Positions 21,108-38,903 of a stretch of DNA of 39,764 nucleotides are shown piece after piece. The DNA is taken from the UHGV virus genome UHGV-0145637. One strand, given 5' to 3'. The position numbers and the translations under genes were made by a program. Source of the DNA: a virus. Position 1 is the stretch's first letter, and every line of letters starts with the position of its first letter. The notes beneath the pieces are model-generated. The model was not told the origin of the DNA. It did no database searches and worked only from the letters and a program-made list of their open reading frames with translations.

Positions 21108-21523
21108 ATTACGCCACCGAAACCGATATGCGGGCACGTTACCGCGAGGATTTGCTCAGGCCATTACTGGCCGTGCCCCGTTCGGATGAGCCGGACACAC
21201 GCAAGCTGAACCGGGCACTGACGGACGCGTCTGCCCTTATCGACAGTTACCTGTCTGCCCGTTACACGCTGCCGCTGGCGGTGGTTCCGGCGGTCCTTGT
21301 TCAGCATTGCTGCACGATTGCCTTTTATTACCTGTGCGATCAGCGGGCATCCGATCAGGCGCGTGACCGTTACCGTGAGGCGCTGGCCTGGCTGAAAGAT
21401 GTCATGAACGGTAACGTGCCGGTCGGCGTGGATACAGACGGTGCGGCCCCTGAATCCGGGGATTTACCGCAGGTGCAGTCTGATGCGGCGGTGTTCGGGC
21501 GCAACCAGAAGGGCTTTATATGA
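21104..21523 (+). CDS. Head-tail joining protein (Mu gp36-like)
   Basis: 139 aa, position between capsid and sheath genes. Confidence 0.55.
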   Translation: MNYATETDMRARYREDLLRPLLAVPRSDEPDTRKLNRALTDASALIDSYLSARYTLPLAVVPAVLVQHCCTIAFYYLCDQRASDQARDRYREALAWLKDVMNGNVPVGVDTDGAAPESGDLPQVQSDAAVFGRNQKGFI

Positions 21524-22083
21524 TTACGGAAACCGAGCAAGCGTACATCGCCCGTATCCGTGAGTATTTCGGGAATGAACTGGTGTCTGTTGACACACAT
21601 CCCGGCGACTGGAGCGACAGCGTACTGCGTACCATGCTGATTAACGCCCCGGCTATCTATGTTGCCTGGCTGGGTGCCGGTGAAGGGCGTACCCGTGGGC
21701 GTCTGGTCAGTCACTGGGTGTTCTACGTCATCGGCGACATGCTCAATGGCCGTGAGGTCAGCCGTCCCGGGCTTTATCAGATTGTGGCCCGCCTGATTAC
21801 CTTGCTGGACGGCTTCAGAGCAGAAAAAACCTCACCGCTTTACTTTGAAAAGGCGGTCAACGGTTACACCGAAACGCAGGCAGGCAGCGGTGCCGTGATG
21901 TACGCCCTGTATTTCTCATGCGAGGAAATGATCGACCCGCTGACGGATATCAGCTCGCTGGATGATTTCCTGCGCCATTACGAAACCTTTACCGAACCGG
22001 AAGGCACGCCGGAGTTTAAGGCACACATCCGTCTGCCTGGTGCAACTGCCGCCGGTGAAAACGCCGGACCGTCAGAGGAATAA
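21520..22083 (+). CDS. Head-tail joining / tail completion protein (Mu gp37-like)
   Basis: 187 aa, position, translational coupling. Confidence 0.55.
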   Translation: MITETEQAYIARIREYFGNELVSVDTHPGDWSDSVLRTMLINAPAIYVAWLGAGEGRTRGRLVSHWVFYVIGDMLNGREVSRPGLYQIVARLITLLDGFRAEKTSPLYFEKAVNGYTETQAGSGAVMYALYFSCEEMIDPLTDISSLDDFLRHYETFTEPEGTPEFKAHIRLPGATAAGENAGPSEE

Positions 22084-22086
22084 CAG

Positions 22087-22365
22087 ATGACAACCATTTT
22101 TATTAAACCTGCGCCGGGATGCCTGATTCGCGATCCCGACACGATGACTCCGCTCTCACAGGACGGTGAAGAGAAACCCTTCACTCCGTTCTGGTGCCGC
22201 CGTCTTAATGATGGTGACGTCATTGTGGTGGATAAAACGGAGGAGCCTGCCCCGGCTGCCACAACAGGTAATACCGGCGCGGCGGCAAAACCAGCGGGAG
22301 CGGCAGCAGAAAAAACTGCGGCGGTGGCTGAAAAAACCGCAGCATCAGATAAGGGGACGTCCTGA
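22087..22365 (+). CDS. Small tail-region protein (Mu gp38-like)
   Basis: 92 aa, Ala/Pro-rich C-terminus, just upstream of sheath. Confidence 0.45.
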   Translation: MTTIFIKPAPGCLIRDPDTMTPLSQDGEEKPFTPFWCRRLNDGDVIVVDKTEEPAPAATTGNTGAAAKPAGAAAEKTAAVAEKTAASDKGTS

Positions 22366-23867
22366 TGATTAACTTTGATTATATCGGCGATAACAATCGC
22401 ATTCCGCTGGTACAGATTGAAATCAATAATTCAATGGCCGTGACCGGCACTCCACCACAGCGTCAGGCGGTACTGTTGTTTGGTCAGGCTGCAATGAAAG
22501 ACACCACCATTCAGGGGCGCGGTCAGCTTGATGTACCAGTACGTATTACCCGAGCTTCACAAGCAAGAGAACTCTGGGGGCGAGGTTCCATGATTGCACT
22601 GATGGTAGAGGAATTTATCGCCATTAACCCTGACACAGAGTTATATGCCATTGCACAGGGGGCTGGAACAGGTCAGTCCAGGGCATGCGTGATGAATATC
22701 ATTGGAACAGCATTGGCAGACGGGGTGTTAAGTGTTTACATCGGCGGTCGCCGTTACCTCCTGCCCGTCAGTAAGGGGAAAAAAGGTAAAGAGCTTGTGG
22801 AAGAGCTGGCTAAGGTCATTAACGCTGACACTGATGCGCCATTCACTGCTATCGCAGCTGAAGTCAGTGGTGATAATGCTGAAGGACTTAAAGGCAGCAT
22901 GGGGGTTAACGCCCGCTTTATCGGTGAATGCTCAGCTCATGATTTACGGGTGAACTATTATGACGGTGAAACTACACCGGCCGGTCTTACGCTGGAGCTC
23001 GTCGCGCCAACACAGAAGGCAACAAACCCCGATATCACCCGTAGCGTCTCAGGGATGGGGAATCGTCAGTACAACTACATCGTCATGCCCTATAAGGATG
23101 CGGCAAATCTCAAAATTCTGGCGGATGAACTGCTGAAACGCTGGGGACCGGTAAAAATGTCGGACGGTATGGTCTGGATGGCGCATACCGGCACCTTCGG
23201 TACGGCAACCAGTTTTGGTGAATCCCGTAATGACTTCCTGTTTACCTGCACTTCTATTCCTAAAGCACCAGAGCCGGATTATGTCTGGGCTGCCTCCATT
23301 TGTGCGGTCTGTGCGCCCTCCCTGTCAACGGATCCGGCCCGACCATTACAGACACTGGCGCTGCCTGCCCGTATGGCACCTGAAGCACCGGATCGTCTGA
23401 CGCGGGAAGAGCGAAACAGCCTGCTTTATACCGGCATGTCCACGGTGACCGTTGCGGCCGCTGATGTGGTGCAGATTGAACGTCAGGTGACGATGTACCG
23501 TCAGAATGCATACGGCGAAAGCGATCCCAGCTATCTGGATGTAGAAACCATCTACACCCTGTCATATCTGCGTTATTCCCTGCGCACCTTTATCACGCAG
23601 CGTTTCCCGCGCCACAAACTGGCCGATAACGGTACTCCCGTCCGGCCCGGTCAGAATATCGTGACGCCGGAGATTATGACGCTCCAGCTGATTGCACTGG
23701 GGGAAGAATGGGTGGAACTCGGGCTGGTCGAAAATCTGGACACCTTTAAAAAGAATCTGCTCGTGGAGCGCAACACAAAAGACCGTAACCGTCTGGATGT
23801 GATGTGTACACCGGATCTGGTTAACCAGTTCCGCTTCATGGCCGCGCAGATCCGTTTCATTTTGTGA
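22365..23867 (+). CDS. Tail sheath protein (Mu L-like)
   Basis: 500 aa followed by a tube-sized gene, then chaperone and tape measure. Confidence 0.8.
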   Translation: MINFDYIGDNNRIPLVQIEINNSMAVTGTPPQRQAVLLFGQAAMKDTTIQGRGQLDVPVRITRASQARELWGRGSMIALMVEEFIAINPDTELYAIAQGAGTGQSRACVMNIIGTALADGVLSVYIGGRRYLLPVSKGKKGKELVEELAKVINADTDAPFTAIAAEVSGDNAEGLKGSMGVNARFIGECSAHDLRVNYYDGETTPAGLTLELVAPTQKATNPDITRSVSGMGNRQYNYIVMPYKDAANLKILADELLKRWGPVKMSDGMVWMAHTGTFGTATSFGESRNDFLFTCTSIPKAPEPDYVWAASICAVCAPSLSTDPARPLQTLALPARMAPEAPDRLTREERNSLLYTGMSTVTVAAADVVQIERQVTMYRQNAYGESDPSYLDVETIYTLSYLRYSLRTFITQRFPRHKLADNGTPVRPGQNIVTPEIMTLQLIALGEEWVELGLVENLDTFKKNLLVERNTKDRNRLDVMCTPDLVNQFRFMAAQIRFIL

Positions 23868-23875
23868 GGTAAGGC

Positions 23876-24241
23876 ATGAGCGGAAAACAGCATCAGGGCA
23901 CGGCCACCATCCGTGTGAACGGACAGGAGTACGCCACCCTTGAGGGAGCCACGTTCTCCCCGTCCGGCTTTGAGCGTGAAGTGGTGAAAGGCGCGAAAGT
24001 CTATGGCTATCGTGAGAAACCCCGTGAGGCGACGCTGGACTGTAAATTTCCGGCAGGCGGAGAAGGTTCACCGGCTGCCGATGAAATCAACACCTGGACT
24101 GCGGTCACGATTGAGTTCGTGGCCGATACCGGTGAAGTCCACATGATGACGAAGGCCTGGAGCAGTGAACCGGCCTCGCTTGACGGTGGCGGTGATATCT
24201 CCGCGAAGTTCGCCAGCGCCACCAGTACCCGTGTCCAGTAA
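23876..24241 (+). CDS. Tail tube protein (Mu M-like)
   Basis: 121 aa directly after sheath. Confidence 0.75.
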   Translation: MSGKQHQGTATIRVNGQEYATLEGATFSPSGFEREVVKGAKVYGYREKPREATLDCKFPAGGEGSPAADEINTWTAVTIEFVADTGEVHMMTKAWSSEPASLDGGGDISAKFASATSTRVQ

Positions 24242-24255
24242 TCAGGAAAAATGCA

Positions 24256-24735
24256 ATGACCACACGTAAGAAAAAAACGGCGGTTTCTGACGAGGCCGTG
24301 ATGGAGGCTATCCGGGATGCACTTGAAGACGGCGATCCCCGCACCGCCGGGCTGGCTGAACAGCTGGCGAACGGCTATGTGGATCTGCTCGACGGTCTGC
24401 CGTTCGGGGAATCCCGTGAATACCGCGTCACCTTCCGCGAACTGACGGCGAAAGACAGCATTGACGCGGAAACCGAGGCCGAGCGTCTTATGGAAACCCG
24501 AAATGGCGGCCCGGTTCTGATAGCCTCGCCGGCACTGCGCGGCATTGCACTGCTGCGCCGTCAGATTGCCGCTGTTGGCCAGATTGAGGGGCCATTGTCT
24601 CCGCGTCAGATCGGACAGCTCAGCGAGCGCGATCTCTCCCGTCTGATGGCGGCGGTAAGCCTGCTTGATTCCGCGATGGCAGGAAAGCTGGTCGCTGAAC
24701 GGGGGCGACCAGATGCAGTGCCGGGATCAGATTGA
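24256..24735 (+). CDS. Tail assembly chaperone, with candidate frameshift extension to 24859
   Basis: 159-aa ORF between tube and tape measure; overlapping ORF 24665..24859 in the +1 (equivalently -2) frame ends 4 nt before the tape-measure start. Confidence 0.6.
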   Translation: MTTRKKKTAVSDEAVMEAIRDALEDGDPRTAGLAEQLANGYVDLLDGLPFGESREYRVTFRELTAKDSIDAETEAERLMETRNGGPVLIASPALRGIALLRRQIAAVGQIEGPLSPRQIGQLSERDLSRLMAAVSLLDSAMAGKLVAERGRPDAVPGSD

Positions 24736-24862
24736 AGAAGCCGCAATTGTGCTGGGGATGGTGACAAAAAGCGGCCCGGAGTGGGCGCTTAACCTCCCTT
24801 TATCGCAGCTTTACCGGCACTGCCGACAGACCGAAAAAATTCTCAGAACGAAGCAGTAACCC

Positions 24863-26920
24863 ATGGCAAAAAACCTGAAAGCCTCCCTGATTGTCGATTT
24901 ACTCGGCAATATTTCCGCCAAATCCCGCCAGTGGTCACAGGAGCTGGGGGCGTTCTCCCGTTCCGGCAGGACAGGCCTGGGTGGTCTTGGAAATGCAGCC
25001 CGCCGGGCCGGTCAGGAAACAGAACTTGTCGGCTCCCGTATGCAGCGAACGCTTGCCGGTGTTCGTGGCAGCATCCGCACGGTAACGTCAGATTTTGACC
25101 GCCTGCAGGGCAGCATTACCGGCACCATCGGGCGGATAAGCAACCTTTACGGGATGCTGGCGGGAGGGGCTGCGGTCTACGGTTTTAATAAAGCCTTTAT
25201 CCGCCCGGCCGCAGAGATGGAGAACTATATTCTGCGTCTCAACGCCATTAATCATGGCGATACGGCAAAAACGGAAGCAGTGAAAGCCTGGGCAGTACAG
25301 AACGCCAAAGACACCACCTGGGGGCTGGCGGGGGTTATGCAGGAATACGCCTCCAGTCGCGGGTTTGGCATGAGTGACAGGGAAGCCCGTCGCTTTATTA
25401 CCATGCTTCAGGATCAGGGCGGCTATCACGGCTGGTCACTGTCAGATGCACAGGGTGCGTCCCTGCAACTCAAACAGATGTTTGCCCGCCAGAGTATCCA
25501 GGCAGCGGACGCCAATATTCTGACCGGATACGGGATTAACGTTTACCAGTTACTGGCCGATAAGCTGGGCGTAAACCAGAAGATCATCCGTGAGAAAGGC
25601 GAAAAAGGAAAACTGGGGCCGGACAGCATTCGCCTGTTATTTCAGGTGATGGCCGAACAGGCAAAAGGTGCCCAGAAAAACGCCATGAATTCCTGGACGG
25701 GAATGACGTCCATGATGGGCGACGTCTGGGACGGATTTGCCCGCGAGGTGATGGCAAAGGGACCGTTTGACAGCCTGAAAAAGAGCCTGAAAGGCTTCCT
25801 GGATTATGCCGATGCGGCACAGAAAAGCGGCTTACAGGATAAGCTGGCCACACAGACGGCCTCAGCTCTGAATCAGGGATTTGAGTATGCCAGAGACGCT
25901 GCGACCGGCTTTTACCGGGTCATTCAGAAAGTCAGGGAAACGCTTCAGGCACTGCGCGACGCCGGTTATGGCGATGCGCTGGATCGCATTGGTCAGGGTG
26001 CGCAGACCGCCGCAAAGTACCTGATGTATATGTATCTCGCCTCCCGTGCGCTGAAGGTGCTCAGGTTTGCGGGGACGGGGGTATTACGTCTCGGCGCAAC
26101 CCCCTTACGCTATGGCATGGCGATGACCTCCGTGCTGACGTCGCCCTTCCGCAAACCGCAGACCACTGTACCGGGAACGCAGCCCGGACGCGCTGGCCGG
26201 TTCCTGAATTTCCTTACCGGGGTAAATCCGGCTGCCGTTCAGCCCGTGCTGGTCACCAACTGGCCTGCGGGTGGCCTGGCCTCAGGTGGCGGGGATGTGG
26301 TGGTCAGCGGTGACGGCAAAACCGTGCGCGGCCGTAAAAAACGCGGCCCCGGACGTGGACGGGGTGTCACGACCGTCGTGACTGCCGGTGAGCAACTGGC
26401 GGAGAGTGCCGGTAAACAGGGCTTCTTCGGTCGTATGATGAGCCGTGCCGGTGGTCTGCTAACGGCGGCCGGAAACCGCATGGGGCTGGGGCGTTTTGCC
26501 GGGCTGTTCCGTGGTGCCGGTCGGCTGGGTGGTGGTGCCCTGTGGGCCGGTGCCATGGCGGCTCCTGTACTGCTGGACAGCAGCGCCAGTGCAGCCGATA
26601 AAGCCGGTGCCGTGGGTTCCCTTGCCGGAAGTATCGCCGGTGGCGCGCTGGGGGCGGCTGCTGGTCCGGTCGGGGTTGCCATTGGTTCCACGGTGGGCAG
26701 CTATCTCGGTGATTATCTGGGGGGCTGGCTGACGCAGGCCTGGCAGAAACTGCGTGGCGGCAGTGACGAAAACGGCGGACAGGCCACCGCGAAAACCGCC
26801 GCACGGGTGGAGCTTGTGGCCCCTGAAGGCTGGCGGGCGCGCAGTATTGATGTGGATGATACCGCACAGCATGGCCTGGATGTGAACGTCTGGAACGGAG
26901 GGAACTATGGCCTCTACTGA
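24863..26920 (+). CDS. Tail tape measure protein
   Basis: 685 aa, largest tail ORF, Gly/Ala-rich C-terminal region. Confidence 0.8.
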   Translation: MAKNLKASLIVDLLGNISAKSRQWSQELGAFSRSGRTGLGGLGNAARRAGQETELVGSRMQRTLAGVRGSIRTVTSDFDRLQGSITGTIGRISNLYGMLAGGAAVYGFNKAFIRPAAEMENYILRLNAINHGDTAKTEAVKAWAVQNAKDTTWGLAGVMQEYASSRGFGMSDREARRFITMLQDQGGYHGWSLSDAQGASLQLKQMFARQSIQAADANILTGYGINVYQLLADKLGVNQKIIREKGEKGKLGPDSIRLLFQVMAEQAKGAQKNAMNSWTGMTSMMGDVWDGFAREVMAKGPFDSLKKSLKGFLDYADAAQKSGLQDKLATQTASALNQGFEYARDAATGFYRVIQKVRETLQALRDAGYGDALDRIGQGAQTAAKYLMYMYLASRALKVLRFAGTGVLRLGATPLRYGMAMTSVLTSPFRKPQTTVPGTQPGRAGRFLNFLTGVNPAAVQPVLVTNWPAGGLASGGGDVVVSGDGKTVRGRKKRGPGRGRGVTTVVTAGEQLAESAGKQGFFGRMMSRAGGLLTAAGNRMGLGRFAGLFRGAGRLGGGALWAGAMAAPVLLDSSASAADKAGAVGSLAGSIAGGALGAAAGPVGVAIGSTVGSYLGDYLGGWLTQAWQKLRGGSDENGGQATAKTAARVELVAPEGWRARSIDVDDTAQHGLDVNVWNGGNYGLY

Positions 26921-28265
26921 CACGCCGGGGCGTGGCTCCTTTCGTGGCGTACCGTTCCTGGTTTATCAGGAGCAGCGGGAACGGGGCGGACGTAACATTG
27001 TGCGCCGTGAATACCCACTGCGTGAAAGCGGCGGTGCGGATGATCTGGGGCCAAAACTCCCGGAGTTCACATTCACGGTTCTGGTTACCGGAGACGATCT
27101 TCAGACACAGCGAAGCCGCCTGCGTGATGCGCTGCGTGCACCCGGTGCCGGTGAACTGATGCACCCGGATTACGGCACGTTAAACGTGCTGATAAACAGC
27201 TTTGAAAGCCGTTATAACGCCAGCGAGCAGGGAACGGTTGAGTTCACGATCAACGTGATCCCCGCCAGTGACGATACCGCCCCTGCGGTGGCAGAAGATA
27301 CGGCAGCTGCGCTGGAGCAGAAAAGCGGCTCAGCAATGAATCAGCTGTTTAACACGCTTTCAGACGGCTGGACGGTGATTTCAGACGGTCTGCATGATGT
27401 ACAGGCCATGACCGACACCATCAGCGATAAGATTGATGCACTGGAGAATGCCGTTTCGGGGATGGGGATTGTGCAGGATATCAGTGCCTTTACGGCCAGT
27501 TTTACTGCCCTGAAAGGCAATGCCGCCGCCCTGATTAATGCGCCCCGTCGCATGGCTGAATCGCTGGCCGGAATGTTTGCCGTGCTGACCGGGCTGCCCG
27601 GCGATCCTTCCCTGTCTCTGACCGGAAAAGCCGGAACGCCGTCCGGCAGCCTGACCACAAACCGTGACAGCATGGCAGAGCAGGCCATGCCGCAGCTGTA
27701 CCGCACACTTTCCTCCCTGCGTTACACCCTCAGCGAACAGGATGATCCACAGCGCCTGATTGGCCTGACGCCTGCGGCACAGAAAAATATCCGTCTGCTG
27801 CGGAGCGTGATGCAGAGTGCAACCCTGGTGTCGCAGGCACAGACGCTCGGAAAACTGCTGGATCAGGTCATCCGGCAGAATACGACGCACGTTCAGGATA
27901 CTGACCGTTCGGGCGGACTGGCCTGGCTGGAAAGTTCTGCTGATGTGCAGCGTATCAACCGGGATTTGAGCGATGCCATGGAACAACAGGTGCTGGATCT
28001 GTCCGCACAGGGCTATACCGGGACTGCCCTTGCATTACGTGATGCAGGGCTTGCGCTGACAGAAGATTTAACCACACGGAGCGTGCATCTTCCCGGTGCT
28101 TTTCAGGTCATGGTTCGCACCACCGAACCGGCACTGGTCACGCTGTACCGTGCCACCGGCAACAGCAGTCGCTGGCAGTATTTTGTCCGCAGAAACAATA
28201 TCCCCGATCCGGTTTTTGTTCCGGGTGGCCGCAGCGTGGAGGTGATCAGTGAGCAGCAGGATTGA
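26907..28265 (+). CDS. Mu-like DNA circulation protein (gpP-like)
   Basis: 452 aa after tape measure, as in Mu. Confidence 0.6.
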   Translation: MASTDTPGRGSFRGVPFLVYQEQRERGGRNIVRREYPLRESGGADDLGPKLPEFTFTVLVTGDDLQTQRSRLRDALRAPGAGELMHPDYGTLNVLINSFESRYNASEQGTVEFTINVIPASDDTAPAVAEDTAAALEQKSGSAMNQLFNTLSDGWTVISDGLHDVQAMTDTISDKIDALENAVSGMGIVQDISAFTASFTALKGNAAALINAPRRMAESLAGMFAVLTGLPGDPSLSLTGKAGTPSGSLTTNRDSMAEQAMPQLYRTLSSLRYTLSEQDDPQRLIGLTPAAQKNIRLLRSVMQSATLVSQAQTLGKLLDQVIRQNTTHVQDTDRSGGLAWLESSADVQRINRDLSDAMEQQVLDLSAQGYTGTALALRDAGLALTEDLTTRSVHLPGAFQVMVRTTEPALVTLYRATGNSSRWQYFVRRNNIPDPVFVPGGRSVEVISEQQD

Positions 28266-33964: not shown

Positions 33965-34537
33965 ATGCTGATTGGGTATATCAGGGTGTCAACAAATGAC
34001 CAGAATACGGCGCTACAAAGAAATGCGCTGGAATGTGCAGGATGTGAGCTGTTTTTCGAAGACAGAATAAGCGGTAAGACAAGGGAGCGTCCCGGACTTA
34101 AACGCGCATTAAAGCGACTCCGGCCAGGGGATACCCTGCTGGTCTGGAAACTGGATCGCCTTGGACGCAGTATGCAGCACCTTGTCCTTTTAACAGAAGA
34201 ACTCCGGCAACGCGGCGTTAACTTCCGCAGCATTACGGACAATATTGATACATCCACTCCCATGGGACGTTTCTTTTTCCATATAATGGGCGCGCTGGCG
34301 GAAATGGAGCGGGAACTCATTATTGAACGTACACGCGCGGGTCTTGCTGCTGCCCGTGCTCAGGGGCGTCATGGCGGCAGACCTCAGAAACTGACAGAGA
34401 AAGAGCGGGAGCAAATCGCCCGTTTGCTGGCTAATGGCGAGTCCCGTAAACAAATCGCACTGATATTTGATATTGGCCTTTCCACCCTTTATCGTTATTT
34501 TCCTGCCTCACCAGCTCCGTCACCAAAAGTACCGTGA
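33965..34537 (+). CDS. gin: Serine recombinase DNA invertase (Gin/Hin/Cin/Pin family)
   Basis: MLIGYIRVSTNDQNTALQRNAL... with catalytic-serine motif and C-terminal HTH; near-colinear with Mu Gin as recalled. Confidence 0.9.
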   Translation: MLIGYIRVSTNDQNTALQRNALECAGCELFFEDRISGKTRERPGLKRALKRLRPGDTLLVWKLDRLGRSMQHLVLLTEELRQRGVNFRSITDNIDTSTPMGRFFFHIMGALAEMERELIIERTRAGLAAARAQGRHGGRPQKLTEKEREQIARLLANGESRKQIALIFDIGLSTLYRYFPASPAPSPKVP

Positions 34538-34622: not shown

Positions 34623-36677
34623 ATGTCAGACTCCAAGTGGAAAATGCTCTCCGCCATGCCCGGAGAGTTTTCAGTCAAGGTTGCCGGTGGCACGGTGGCA
34701 TTTATTGAAAGCCCTTTCCGCCCTTCGGGTAATAAAGGGGGGATCACCTTCGCAGACTGCGTGATCCGCTTCAGCACGAAAGAGCCATTATGGGTAATGC
34801 CGGTATCCGGTAATCCCAGTGCAGAAATCACCAGTTCAGGCGTGACTGGCATCATTCCAATCACATCTGACGTGGCCGGAACGCTCACGCCCTCCGACTG
34901 GAATGCACCGGATAACGCCGGGCCTTCCGGTAGCACGAATGGCAGCAGTTCAGAGCCGGAATATTACTTTGTTGTCATTCTCGCGGGTCAGTCAAATGGC
35001 ATGGCCTACGGCGAGGGGCTGCCGTTACCGGATTCGTTTGACCGCCCGGACCCACGCATTAAGCAACTGGCACGCCGCAGTACGGTAACGCCCAACGGTA
35101 CGTCGTGTACATACAACGACATCATTCCGGCAGACCACTGCCTGCATGATGTTCAGGATATGAGCGGGATAAACCACCCGAAAGCTGATCTGGCAAAAGG
35201 CCAGTACGGGACTGTCGGTCAGGGGTTGCATATTGCCAAAAAACTGCTTCCCTATATCCCACAGAATGCCGGGATACTTCTGGTGCCCTGTTGTCGTGGC
35301 GGGTCAGCATTCACCACTGGAGCCGACGGCTCATTCAGTGAGGCCAGCGGTGCTTCCGCTGATTCTTCACGCTGGGGGGCCGGTAAACCTCTGTATCAGG
35401 ACCTGGTAAGCCGCACCAAAGTCGCGCTGGCGAAAAACCCGAAAAACAAACTTCTGGCTGTGGTCTGGATGCAGGGAGAGGCAGACCTTGCCTCAGGAAG
35501 CCAGCAGCATAATAGTTTATTCACGGCCATGGTTCAGCAGTTCAGAACTGACCTGGCTCCGCTTGCTGCGCAGTGCGTGAGTGGAAATGCCACCACGGTG
35601 CCGTGGATTTGCGGTGATACCACGTATTACTGGAAAAACGCTGGCACCGATAAATATGAGGCAGTATACGGTGGCTACAAAGGCAAGGAAGCACAGAAAA
35701 TTTTCTTTGTACCGTTCCTGACGGATGAGAATGGACAGAGCACGCCAACGAATGCTCCGGCGGAAGACCCGGATATTGTGGCTGTCGGGTATTACGGTGC
35801 AGCATCCCGAACCCAGGGCAGTTTTGTTTCGACACAGCGTGACAGCCATTTCAGCTCATGGGCACGCAGGGGCGTCATTTCAGACCGTCTGGCCTCAGCT
35901 ATTATGCTCCATGCAGGGCGCACGGCTGAACTGATGCGCGGGCAGACCGTGACACCACCGGATGAGAAGCCGTCACCTGATACACCATCAAAACCGTCCA
36001 CGCCACCCGCAGACACCACGACGATGAGTACGCTATTTGCTTACCGGGCATCTGAGTCTGAAGGACGGTTGACACCACAGGGTTGGGCTGCCGGAGGTGG
36101 CAAGGCTCAAATCGTGGATGATGCCGGAGCCAGCGGGGGTAAGGCAATGAAACTGACCAAGGAAACAGGAAGAGCCCCCTGGTACCTTGAGCATGATGCT
36201 GGTAATGGTGCGGACCTGCTGGGTAAAGGTGGTCTTGTCAGTTGTCGTTTTAAACTCGATGGCGCGCTTACGGCTAATCAGTACGCACTGGCGCTGTACT
36301 GGCCGGTTTCTGCCCTGCCGCAAGGGGTTACTCTGGAAGGAAATGCCGGTCATAACCTGCTGGCATCGTTCTACGTACAGAGCGATGCCACAGACCTTAA
36401 CGTGATGTATCACAAAGGAAACACGGCGCAGAACACGAAGCTGGGGTCATTCGGCGCATTTAATAACGAATGGCATACGCTGGGCTTCCGTTTTGCCGGT
36501 AACAACAGTATTGAGGTGACACCGGTCATTGATGGTAAGGACGGGACACCATTCATGCTGTCGCAGTCTCCGGTCGGCACGTTTACGGCAGACAAGTTGC
36601 GCGTGACCGATATCACTAAAAATGCGACTTACCCGGTACTGATTGACAGTATCGTGGTGGAAGTGAATAACGCGTAA
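34623..36677 (+). CDS. SGNH-type (sialate-O-acetylesterase-like) esterase domain protein with Pro/Thr linker and C-terminal beta-rich domain
   Basis: Motifs VILAGQSNGMAYGEG and VVWMQGEAD; linker PPDEKPSPDTPSKPSTPPADTTT; about 210-aa C-terminal domain; no N-terminal signal peptide. Confidence 0.5.
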   Translation: MSDSKWKMLSAMPGEFSVKVAGGTVAFIESPFRPSGNKGGITFADCVIRFSTKEPLWVMPVSGNPSAEITSSGVTGIIPITSDVAGTLTPSDWNAPDNAGPSGSTNGSSSEPEYYFVVILAGQSNGMAYGEGLPLPDSFDRPDPRIKQLARRSTVTPNGTSCTYNDIIPADHCLHDVQDMSGINHPKADLAKGQYGTVGQGLHIAKKLLPYIPQNAGILLVPCCRGGSAFTTGADGSFSEASGASADSSRWGAGKPLYQDLVSRTKVALAKNPKNKLLAVVWMQGEADLASGSQQHNSLFTAMVQQFRTDLAPLAAQCVSGNATTVPWICGDTTYYWKNAGTDKYEAVYGGYKGKEAQKIFFVPFLTDENGQSTPTNAPAEDPDIVAVGYYGAASRTQGSFVSTQRDSHFSSWARRGVISDRLASAIMLHAGRTAELMRGQTVTPPDEKPSPDTPSKPSTPPADTTTMSTLFAYRASESEGRLTPQGWAAGGGKAQIVDDAGASGGKAMKLTKETGRAPWYLEHDAGNGADLLGKGGLVSCRFKLDGALTANQYALALYWPVSALPQGVTLEGNAGHNLLASFYVQSDATDLNVMYHKGNTAQNTKLGSFGAFNNEWHTLGFRFAGNNSIEVTPVIDGKDGTPFMLSQSPVGTFTADKLRVTDITKNATYPVLIDSIVVEVNNA

Positions 36678-37964: not shown

Positions 37965-38011
37965 GATTGAGTGATAAAGATATCAACAACAAAGCAGGAG
38001 GTTATGCGGCC

Positions 38012-38212
38012 ATGTATCGAAACATACGGTGCCGACATTGTAACAAGCTACTGGCACGAGCCAGCTTCAGTTATCTGGAAGTTAAATGTCCGCGCTGTAA
38101 AACCCTCAATCAAATCACATCTCAGAGCGCCACAGAGCACCCCACATACACAAGGAAATCCTGTCGTGGGGAACAGAAAGCAAGTTACATCCCGTATCAT
38201 CAGCACGCCTGA
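38012..38212 (+). CDS. com: Com zinc-finger translational activator of mom
   Basis: [10 protein letters not shown]...EVKCPRCK matches the Mu Com zinc finger as recalled (IRCKNCNKLL...IRCPRCK); GCAGGAGG RBS; start at the internal Met of the track ORF. Confidence 0.8.
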
Positions 38213-38903
38213 ACTTATTCACTATAACGACAATATCGTCGGTTATGGCTCCCGTGAGTTACGGGTTGAGACAATAAGTTGCTGGCTGGCCCGGCTGGTC
38301 GTCGTCAATAAACATTACAGCCATCGTTTCGTAAATAATTCCTACCTTCATCTGGGCATATTTTCAGAACGGGAGCTGGTTGGCGTAATGCAATGGGGTT
38401 ATGCCCTTAATCCAAACAATGGTGCACGCGTCGTAACTGGCACGCAGAACCGCGAATATATGGAGCTTAACCGGTTATGGCTGCATGACTGTATGCCGAG
38501 AAACTCCGAATCAAGGGCAATCAGTTACGCGCTCAAACTAATCAGACAACTTTATCCGCAGGTGCAGTGGGTTCAGTCGTTTGCAGATGAGCGTTGTGGC
38601 TGTCTTGGTGTCGTGTACCAGGCAAGCAATTTTGATTATGTAGGCAGTCATGAAACAACATTCTATGAACTTGATGGCGAGTGGTATCACGAGATTTGCA
38701 AGAATGCAATCAAACGAGGAGGACAGCGAGGTGAACATCTGCGGGCTAATATCGACAGAGCCAGTGTTCATAAATTCCGTCAGTTTCGTTACATCCGGTT
38801 TCTGGACAAGAGAGCCAGAAAACGCCTTAACACAAAGCTATTCAAAGTCCAGCCTTACCCAAAACCACAAACAGTTAAAACTGGTTTGAAAGAGAGTGAA
38901 TGA
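38166..38903 (+). CDS. mom: Mom-like DNA modification protein
   Basis: 246-aa frame beginning inside the 3' end of com (GTG at 38166 with AGGAAA upstream), as in Mu; assigned by position and size only. Confidence 0.55.

Follow-up and report, generated by a model that had tools for sequence, protein, structure and literature searches.

A Mu-type tail chaperone frameshift predicted in a transposable prophage of Escherichia coli

The chaperone locus and its overlapping frames

The tail-assembly chaperone gene considered here is overlapped at its 3' end by a second open reading frame (ORF), which lies in a different frame and stops almost at the tape measure gene, raising the question of whether the two are translated as a fusion and, if so, by a shift in which direction and at which site. 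We addressed this in a virus genome of 39,764 nt (UHGV-0145637), the whole of which is referred to below as the window. As judged by homology, the locus is the tail-assembly chaperone gene of a Mu-like transposable E. coli prophage (a myovirus). Genes for Mu transposition and morphogenesis were detected in the window, including those for Mu transposase domains, the MuB C-terminal domain, Portal_Mu, a Mu-like gpT, a Gin-like invertase, and Mom; the window therefore represents an essentially complete Mu-like transposable prophage. Between the Gin-like invertase (33965-34537) and Mom (37971-38903) lies a 684-aa ORF (34623-36677) with a sialate O-acetylesterase domain (SASA) and DUF6645, which looks like a cargo gene at the accessory end of the prophage. 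The features of the tail-gene block that bear on the question are as follows.

22365-23867, + strand: tail sheath gene, homolog of Mu L (Pfam Phage_sheath_1 and Phage_sheath_1C)
23876-24241, + strand: tail tube gene, homolog of Mu M, adjoining the chaperone on its 5' side (Pfam Tail_tube PF10618, E = 1.4e-29)
24256-24735, + strand: chaperone, zero-frame product of 159 aa ("G" protein; Mu gp41 homolog; Gp41_Mu family)
24659-24732, + strand: overlap window, in which the shift from the chaperone frame to the +1 frame must fall (from the stops in all three frames)
24702-24708, + strand: predicted shift site G_GGG_CGA, identical to that of Mu and an invariant heptamer in relatives
24704-24859, + strand: predicted "T" extension in the +1 frame, from GGC 24704 to the stop at 24857-24859 (phrog_12783, E = 3.7e-38)
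24863-26920, + strand: tape measure protein gene, encoding the expected binding partner of the chaperone (Pfam TMP_3 PF20155, E = 2e-17)
26907-28265, + strand: DNA_circ_N protein gene

The order sheath-tube-chaperone-tape measure is that of Mu genes 39 to 42. The chaperone belongs to the Pfam family Gp41_Mu (PF23746), which it matches over profile positions 1 to 107 of 107 with 112.7 bits against a cut-off of 27 bits (E = 1.2e-32), and it likewise matches the tail assembly chaperone family phrog_508 (E = 9e-42). By exact-sequence look-up, the 159-aa protein was found on 842 contigs. The chromosome of E. coli JE86-ST05 is 100% identical to the window over 24256-24862, and copies related to this segment occur in 228 of 5,426 complete E. 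coli genomes. In the JE86-ST05 record (NZ_AP022815.1, locus L005; window 21256-27862), the genes for the sheath, tube, tape measure, and DNA-circularization proteins all carry the label of "frameshifted" pseudogenes. Single-base indels at window positions 22759, 24156, 26336, 26719, and 26739 set this record apart from the window, in which the ORFs are intact, and the indels are probably assembly errors in NZ_AP022815.1.

The chaperone is read in frame 1 and stops at 24733-24735. Frame 2, reached from it by a step of +1 or -2, has its prior stop at 24656-24658, is open from 24659, and closes at 24857-24859; the ORF listed in this 66-codon open frame runs from a TTG at 24665 to 24859. The original prediction had placed the overlap over the last ~70 nt of the chaperone and the end of the ORF right before the tape measure gene. 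Both statements are confirmed, the overlap being 74 nt from 24659 (71 nt if counted from the TTG) and the stop of the extension lying 3 nt ahead of the tape measure ATG at 24863. The third frame (frame 0, the -1 frame of the chaperone) has an open stretch from 24699 to a stop at 24762-24764; therefore, the +1 frame alone bridges the gap to the tape measure gene. A 66-codon open frame is marginally unlikely by chance alone (~0.05 as a rough estimate), and a chance ORF is ruled out because the same arrangement, together with the heptamer, is kept in all 127 distinct related sequences described below.

The G run that had been pointed out inside the overlap is part of CGGGGGCGA at 24700-24708, which reads CGG_GGG_CGA in the chaperone frame and corresponds to the site annotated as a -2 frameshift in Mu. 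In terms of a -2 shift, GGG 24703-24705 is the codon that slips in the P site, CGA 24706-24708 is the A-site codon, and GGG 24701-24703 is the landing codon. We also considered A_AAG at 24684-24687 as a slip site and rejected it, since a slip there would enter the -1 frame, which is the wrong one, and the motif lacks conservation. Inside the sheath gene, at 22577-22583, G_GGG_CGA occurs in frame a second time (TGG_GGG_CGA), and a -2 slip at that point would yield a truncated sheath fragment; this copy is probably incidental, since the strand carries two copies against ~2.4 expected by chance.

The extension and the phage Mu precedent

On comparative sequence evidence, the extension is a real coding sequence under purifying selection. 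Where the window and its relatives differ, most of the changes are at the third codon position of the +1 frame; in a comparison with one of them (L006), those beyond the chaperone stop number 2, 0, and 9 at codon positions 1, 2, and 3, respectively. The extension is a conserved peptide of ~50 aa, and 42 distinct homologous peptides can be aligned with the common pattern G-D/E-W/L...hydrophobic...LPL..L.R. It is sometimes called as a free-standing small ORF with an arbitrary start, as in gene 41.5 of phage D108 (L003 1571-1717) and in the 60-aa E. coli "hypothetical proteins" P0016 and P0020; phrog_12783, which is labeled "unknown function," appears to have been built from such calls.

A -2 shift at the site would join chaperone and extension into a 201-aa fusion ending in ...VAERG-GDQMQCRDQIEEAAIVLGMVTKSGPEWALNLPLSQLYRHCRQTEKILRTKQ (junction, ...AERG-GDQMQ...). 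The RefSeq pipeline annotates the 159-aa chaperone only and leaves 24736-24862 empty, and the fusion is unannotated in every related record examined except that of Mu (GenBank AF083977.1). Exact-sequence look-up of the predicted 201-aa protein gave no entry in a 15-billion-protein collection or the other databases searched, and no matches to the fusion were recovered among NCBIfam and PDB sequences.

Xu, Hendrix, and Duda reportedly described both the G/GT-type tail chaperone frameshift and the -2 shift of Mu in 2004. The Mu record AF083977.1 contains a two-piece CDS, Mu_56, with the note [quoted passage not shown] In the literature, decoding of the Mu tail-assembly gene by -2 frameshifting is credited to Xu, Hendrix, and Duda 2004 and Baranov et al. 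2006 (PMC5009743; PMC3498833). Its efficiency is given as ~2.2% (PMC3498833), and a fusion that is made at a low, fixed ratio and needed for tail assembly is reported for Mu and lambda only; a Mu 10-mer site gave 14% frameshifting in a cell-free system (bioRxiv 10.1101/2025.10.02.679949). Mu was the sole known natural -2 case according to a 2012 paper (PMC3498833), and a few further natural cases are listed in a 2016 review (PMC5009743). A full-text literature search for GGGGGCGA returned, as its sole match, an unrelated table of ribosome-binding sites.

The window locus resembles Mu gp41/FS-gp41 (Mu_41/Mu_56) in its Gp41_Mu family, gene order, zero-frame nonamer CGG_GGG_CGA, target frame, and homologous extension. 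Like the window, Mu gene 41 has gaaCGG_GGG_CGA in the zero frame, so that nonamer and register are identical to those of the window, and the two extensions are 53% identical. When both possible junctions of the Mu fusion were built and looked up exactly, the -2 form alone (..QERGGEWLR.., 188 aa) was found, as Swiss-Prot P0DJY4 (named "Probable tail assembly protein FS-gp41," with a two-Gly junction) and UIW09302.1; the +1-junction version was absent from the databases. Across the junction, the predicted window fusion aligns colinearly and gap-free with P0DJY4 (49% identity over 168 aa, E = 1e-55). The two systems differ in that the chaperones are only ~48% identical (48% to Mu gp41 in a protein search of phage records), in that the window chaperone has an N-terminal extension of ~30 aa that is absent from Mu and runs 10 codons beyond the GGG slip codon versus 8 in Mu, and in that the fusion is annotated in Mu and unannotated in this prophage, where it is predicted from sequence. 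The G/GT-type assignment made in the original prediction is thus supported by the Gp41_Mu family, the gene position, and the Mu-homologous extension; for the direction, which it had described as not the common -1 and left open as "+1 or -2," homology to Mu gives -2. The Mu-type -2 chaperone frameshift is already known, its family, direction, and exact site having been published since 2004 and being available in GenBank and Swiss-Prot, and this prophage is an unremarkable further carrier of it.

Conservation and the shift signal

Relatives of the locus were obtained from annotated phage records, from one Citrobacter braakii locus (the one locus recovered by a contig scan with a single protein query), and from two viral-contig scans with alignments, which contributed 160 loci. 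Removal of duplicates reduced 169 loci to 127 distinct sequences, spanning enteric, Pasteurella, Vibrio, Shewanella, and Alteromonad Mu-like phages, with chaperone identity down to ~35%. In every one of these, the +1 frame continues past the chaperone to end -29 to +17 nt from the tape measure start and the other frame closes early; the downstream ORF is conserved in this arrangement across all 127. At the extremes, the +1 frame becomes open just 5 nt ahead of the GGG codon in some relatives, and the chaperone stop can lie a mere 9 nt past the first G of that codon. Therefore, the shift window common to all relatives is 14 nt in length and centered on the heptamer.

The sequence NNG_GGG_CGA occurs in the chaperone frame in 127 of 127 distinct sequences, and in an alignment of 23 sequences (60% mean identity) GGGGCGA is the sole contiguous invariant block. 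The codon before GGG is CGG in 110 sequences, AGG in 9, AAG in 5, TCG in 2, and CAG in 1, such that the encoded amino acid varies (R, K, Q, or S) and the last base is invariably G. This base is the middle one of the -2 landing codon, which points to a backward slip, as this needs the G and a +1 slip would not. In 8 of the 127 sequences (those with AAG, CAG, or TCG), the first base of the -2 landing codon would be mismatched, so re-pairing is not perfect throughout the family. On the other side of the slip codon, CGA is never replaced by AGA in relatives. AGA would suit both frames (Arg in frame 0, Gly-Asp/Glu in frame +1), and the invariance of CGA hence suggests that selection acts at the nucleotide level.

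In several relatives, the run is just four Gs long. As an exception to the pattern, L066 (1540-1560; same contig as L107) lacks one G and carries a second indel nearby, which looks like a sequencing error. The one-G-shorter run of L066/L107 and of the proteins P0002 and P0008 (Logan) results in a direct in-frame fusion (..RGEW.., 187 aa); such shorter runs in public assemblies are explained either by sequencing errors in the homopolymer or by natural differences in its length.

A downstream stimulatory structure was sought in three ways. Single-sequence folds of the 95 nt after the site were no better than those of shuffled sequences (z = -0.67 for the window and +0.03 for Mu), RNAalifold predicted no conserved pairs from 23 diverse sequences, and Rfam at gathering thresholds gave no match in the whole window. 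The apparent lack of an RNA stimulator is in keeping with the low efficiency given for Mu. A 9-bp hairpin can be drawn between 24688-24696 and 24704-24712 (core repeat, CTGGTCGC/GCGACCAG), with the slip site in its loop and 3' arm; it was rejected as part of the signal, its 5' arm sequence being missing from Mu and other relatives. The hairpin and an ATG at 24713 in the +1 frame are specific to this prophage lineage, and neither is conserved in Mu or the O157 prophage.

Mechanism, alternatives, and consequences for annotation

It is thus highly likely that the locus encodes the G/GT-type chaperone pair of a Mu-like prophage, expressed by programmed -2 ribosomal frameshifting. From homology, we infer for this prophage the -2 direction, low efficiency, a pausing role of CGA, and a function in tail assembly. 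Most ribosomes would translate 24256-24735 into the 159-aa chaperone. In a minor fraction, the P site would hold tRNA-Gly on GGG 24703-24705 while CGA 24706-24708, a rare codon that is slow to be decoded, occupies the A site; the tRNA-Gly would then slip back two bases onto GGG 24701-24703 (single-tRNA P-site slippage), whereupon the common codon GGC 24704-24706 would be read, followed by GAC CAG and the +1 frame until the stop at 24857. The product would be a minor 201-aa fusion with a C-terminal "T" domain of ~50 aa and a predicted Glu-C junction peptide of RGGDQMQCRDQIE. Codon usage in the prophage genes shows CGA to be rare (3.5 per 1,000 codons; 29 of 643 Arg codons) and GGC to be the commonest Gly codon. 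In E. coli, CGA is read by tRNA-Arg(ICG), whose inosine forms a weak wobble pair with the adenosine, and we infer that CGA acts as the pause codon. Against this explanation stands the fact that the G run also permits a perfectly re-pairing -1 slip on G_GGG, which would add a 19-residue tail ending at 24762-24764; the imperfect landing codon of eight relatives and the failure to detect a stimulatory RNA structure likewise speak against it.

On the model of lambda gpG/gpGT, the tape measure protein would be a binding partner of both chaperone forms, with the T domain of the fusion bringing in the tube protein, and the virion would be expected to contain neither form. The lambda chaperone forms a coat on the tape measure protein, and the rare lambda fusion draws in the major tail (tube) protein through its T domain; chaperone forms of the lambda/P2 type are likewise not expected in the virion (PMC5009743).

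The same frame would be reached by a +1 shift at the same site and with the same function, in which tRNA-Gly would move from GGG to GGC 24704-24706 and the fusion would contain one Gly fewer (...AERGDQMQ..., 200 aa; predicted Glu-C junction peptide, RGDQMQCRDQIE). The reporter used in a 2025 preprint is unable to distinguish the two directions (bioRxiv 10.1101/2025.10.02.679949), GGG_C ahead of a slow A-site codon is similar to established +1 sites, among them Ty1 CUU_AGG_C (PMC5009743), and in the AAG, CAG, and TCG relatives -2 re-pairing is no better than +1 re-pairing. We nevertheless consider a +1 shift unlikely, given that the Mu record AF083977.1 states "verified -2," that P0DJY4 has the two-Gly junction with the one-Gly form absent from databases, and that a +1 shift gives no reason for the invariant G before GGG while the encoded amino acid varies.

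Two further alternatives dispense with ribosomal frameshifting. In transcriptional slippage, RNA polymerase would drop one G or add two in the G5 run and the edited mRNA would be translated normally, a view to which the homopolymer run at the site and the one-G-shorter, directly fused versions (L066/L107; P0002 and P0008) lend some support, even though the latter may equally be sequencing errors. However, a run of five Gs is short for E. coli RNA polymerase to slip on productively, several relatives manage with four, and the invariant CGA after the run is left unexplained, which makes this alternative very improbable. The Mu 10-mer, moreover, shifted frame in a cell-free assay, though its template was still transcribed there (bioRxiv 10.1101/2025.10.02.679949). 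We regard as extremely improbable a separate small gene with its own start at TTG 24665 or ATG 24713: gene callers do report such small ORFs (D108 gene 41.5; the 60-aa P0016 and P0020 of E. coli), and the GGGGG-N7-ATG spacing suits initiation, such that GGGGG could act as a ribosome-binding site for ATG 24713, but the candidate starts are not conserved (the window Met is Leu in Mu and Ala in the O157 prophage), D108 41.5 starts at CTG, the +1 frame of some relatives opens just 5 nt ahead of the GGG codon, and the Mu product is on record as a fusion.

In its organization, the locus shows the features of a G/GT-type pair, namely, the position between the tube and tape measure genes, an overlapping coding ORF without a conserved start, and a conserved slippery sequence in the overlap. 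It thereby resembles lambda gpG/gpGT and P2 gpE/gpE+E', in which two nested tail chaperones are encoded just upstream of the tape measure gene. However, lambda (G_GGA_AAG) and P2 use a -1 rather than a -2 shift, with a tandem slip on an X_XXY_YYZ motif; the window chaperone has no detectable sequence similarity to lambda G, and its common ground with P2 E is limited to the Phage_TAC_7 family, for which it scores 23 bits, below the 25-bit cut-off. The +1 sites of yeast Ty1 (CUU_AGG_C) and Listeria phage PSA (CCC_UGA) are similar in that a single P-site tRNA re-pairs next to a slow or rare A-site codon, and in Ty1 the new-frame codon is likewise GGC, read by an abundant tRNA (PMC5009743). In Ty1 and PSA, the shift is forward by one base as opposed to back by two as proposed here, and the genes and organisms differ, so the resemblance is one of mechanism only.

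Some detail may be added to the known picture by the family-wide comparison, in which the 7 nt of the signal, CGA among them, never vary, the base two positions ahead of GGG does, and no RNA structure was detected. A more far-reaching reading, which we put forward as doubtful and on sequence grounds, is that the 7-nt G_GGG_CGA without RNA structure might be the entire signal and that, with A or C tolerated directly ahead of the heptamer, the match to the -2 landing codon need not be full. If true and unreported, this would constitute a minimal, family-wide -2 signal dependent on a slow, inosine-read CGA, and the AAG, CAG, and TCG variants could possibly shift +1 rather than -2, with direction switching within one gene family. 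The Mu-type -2 frameshift favored here matters mainly for annotation, as the records of this prophage lack the fusion, a protein that tail assembly probably cannot do without. The invariance of G_GGG_CGA provides a simple rule for annotating the fusion throughout the family, and the family lends itself, as a clean natural data set, to the study of -2 frameshifting.
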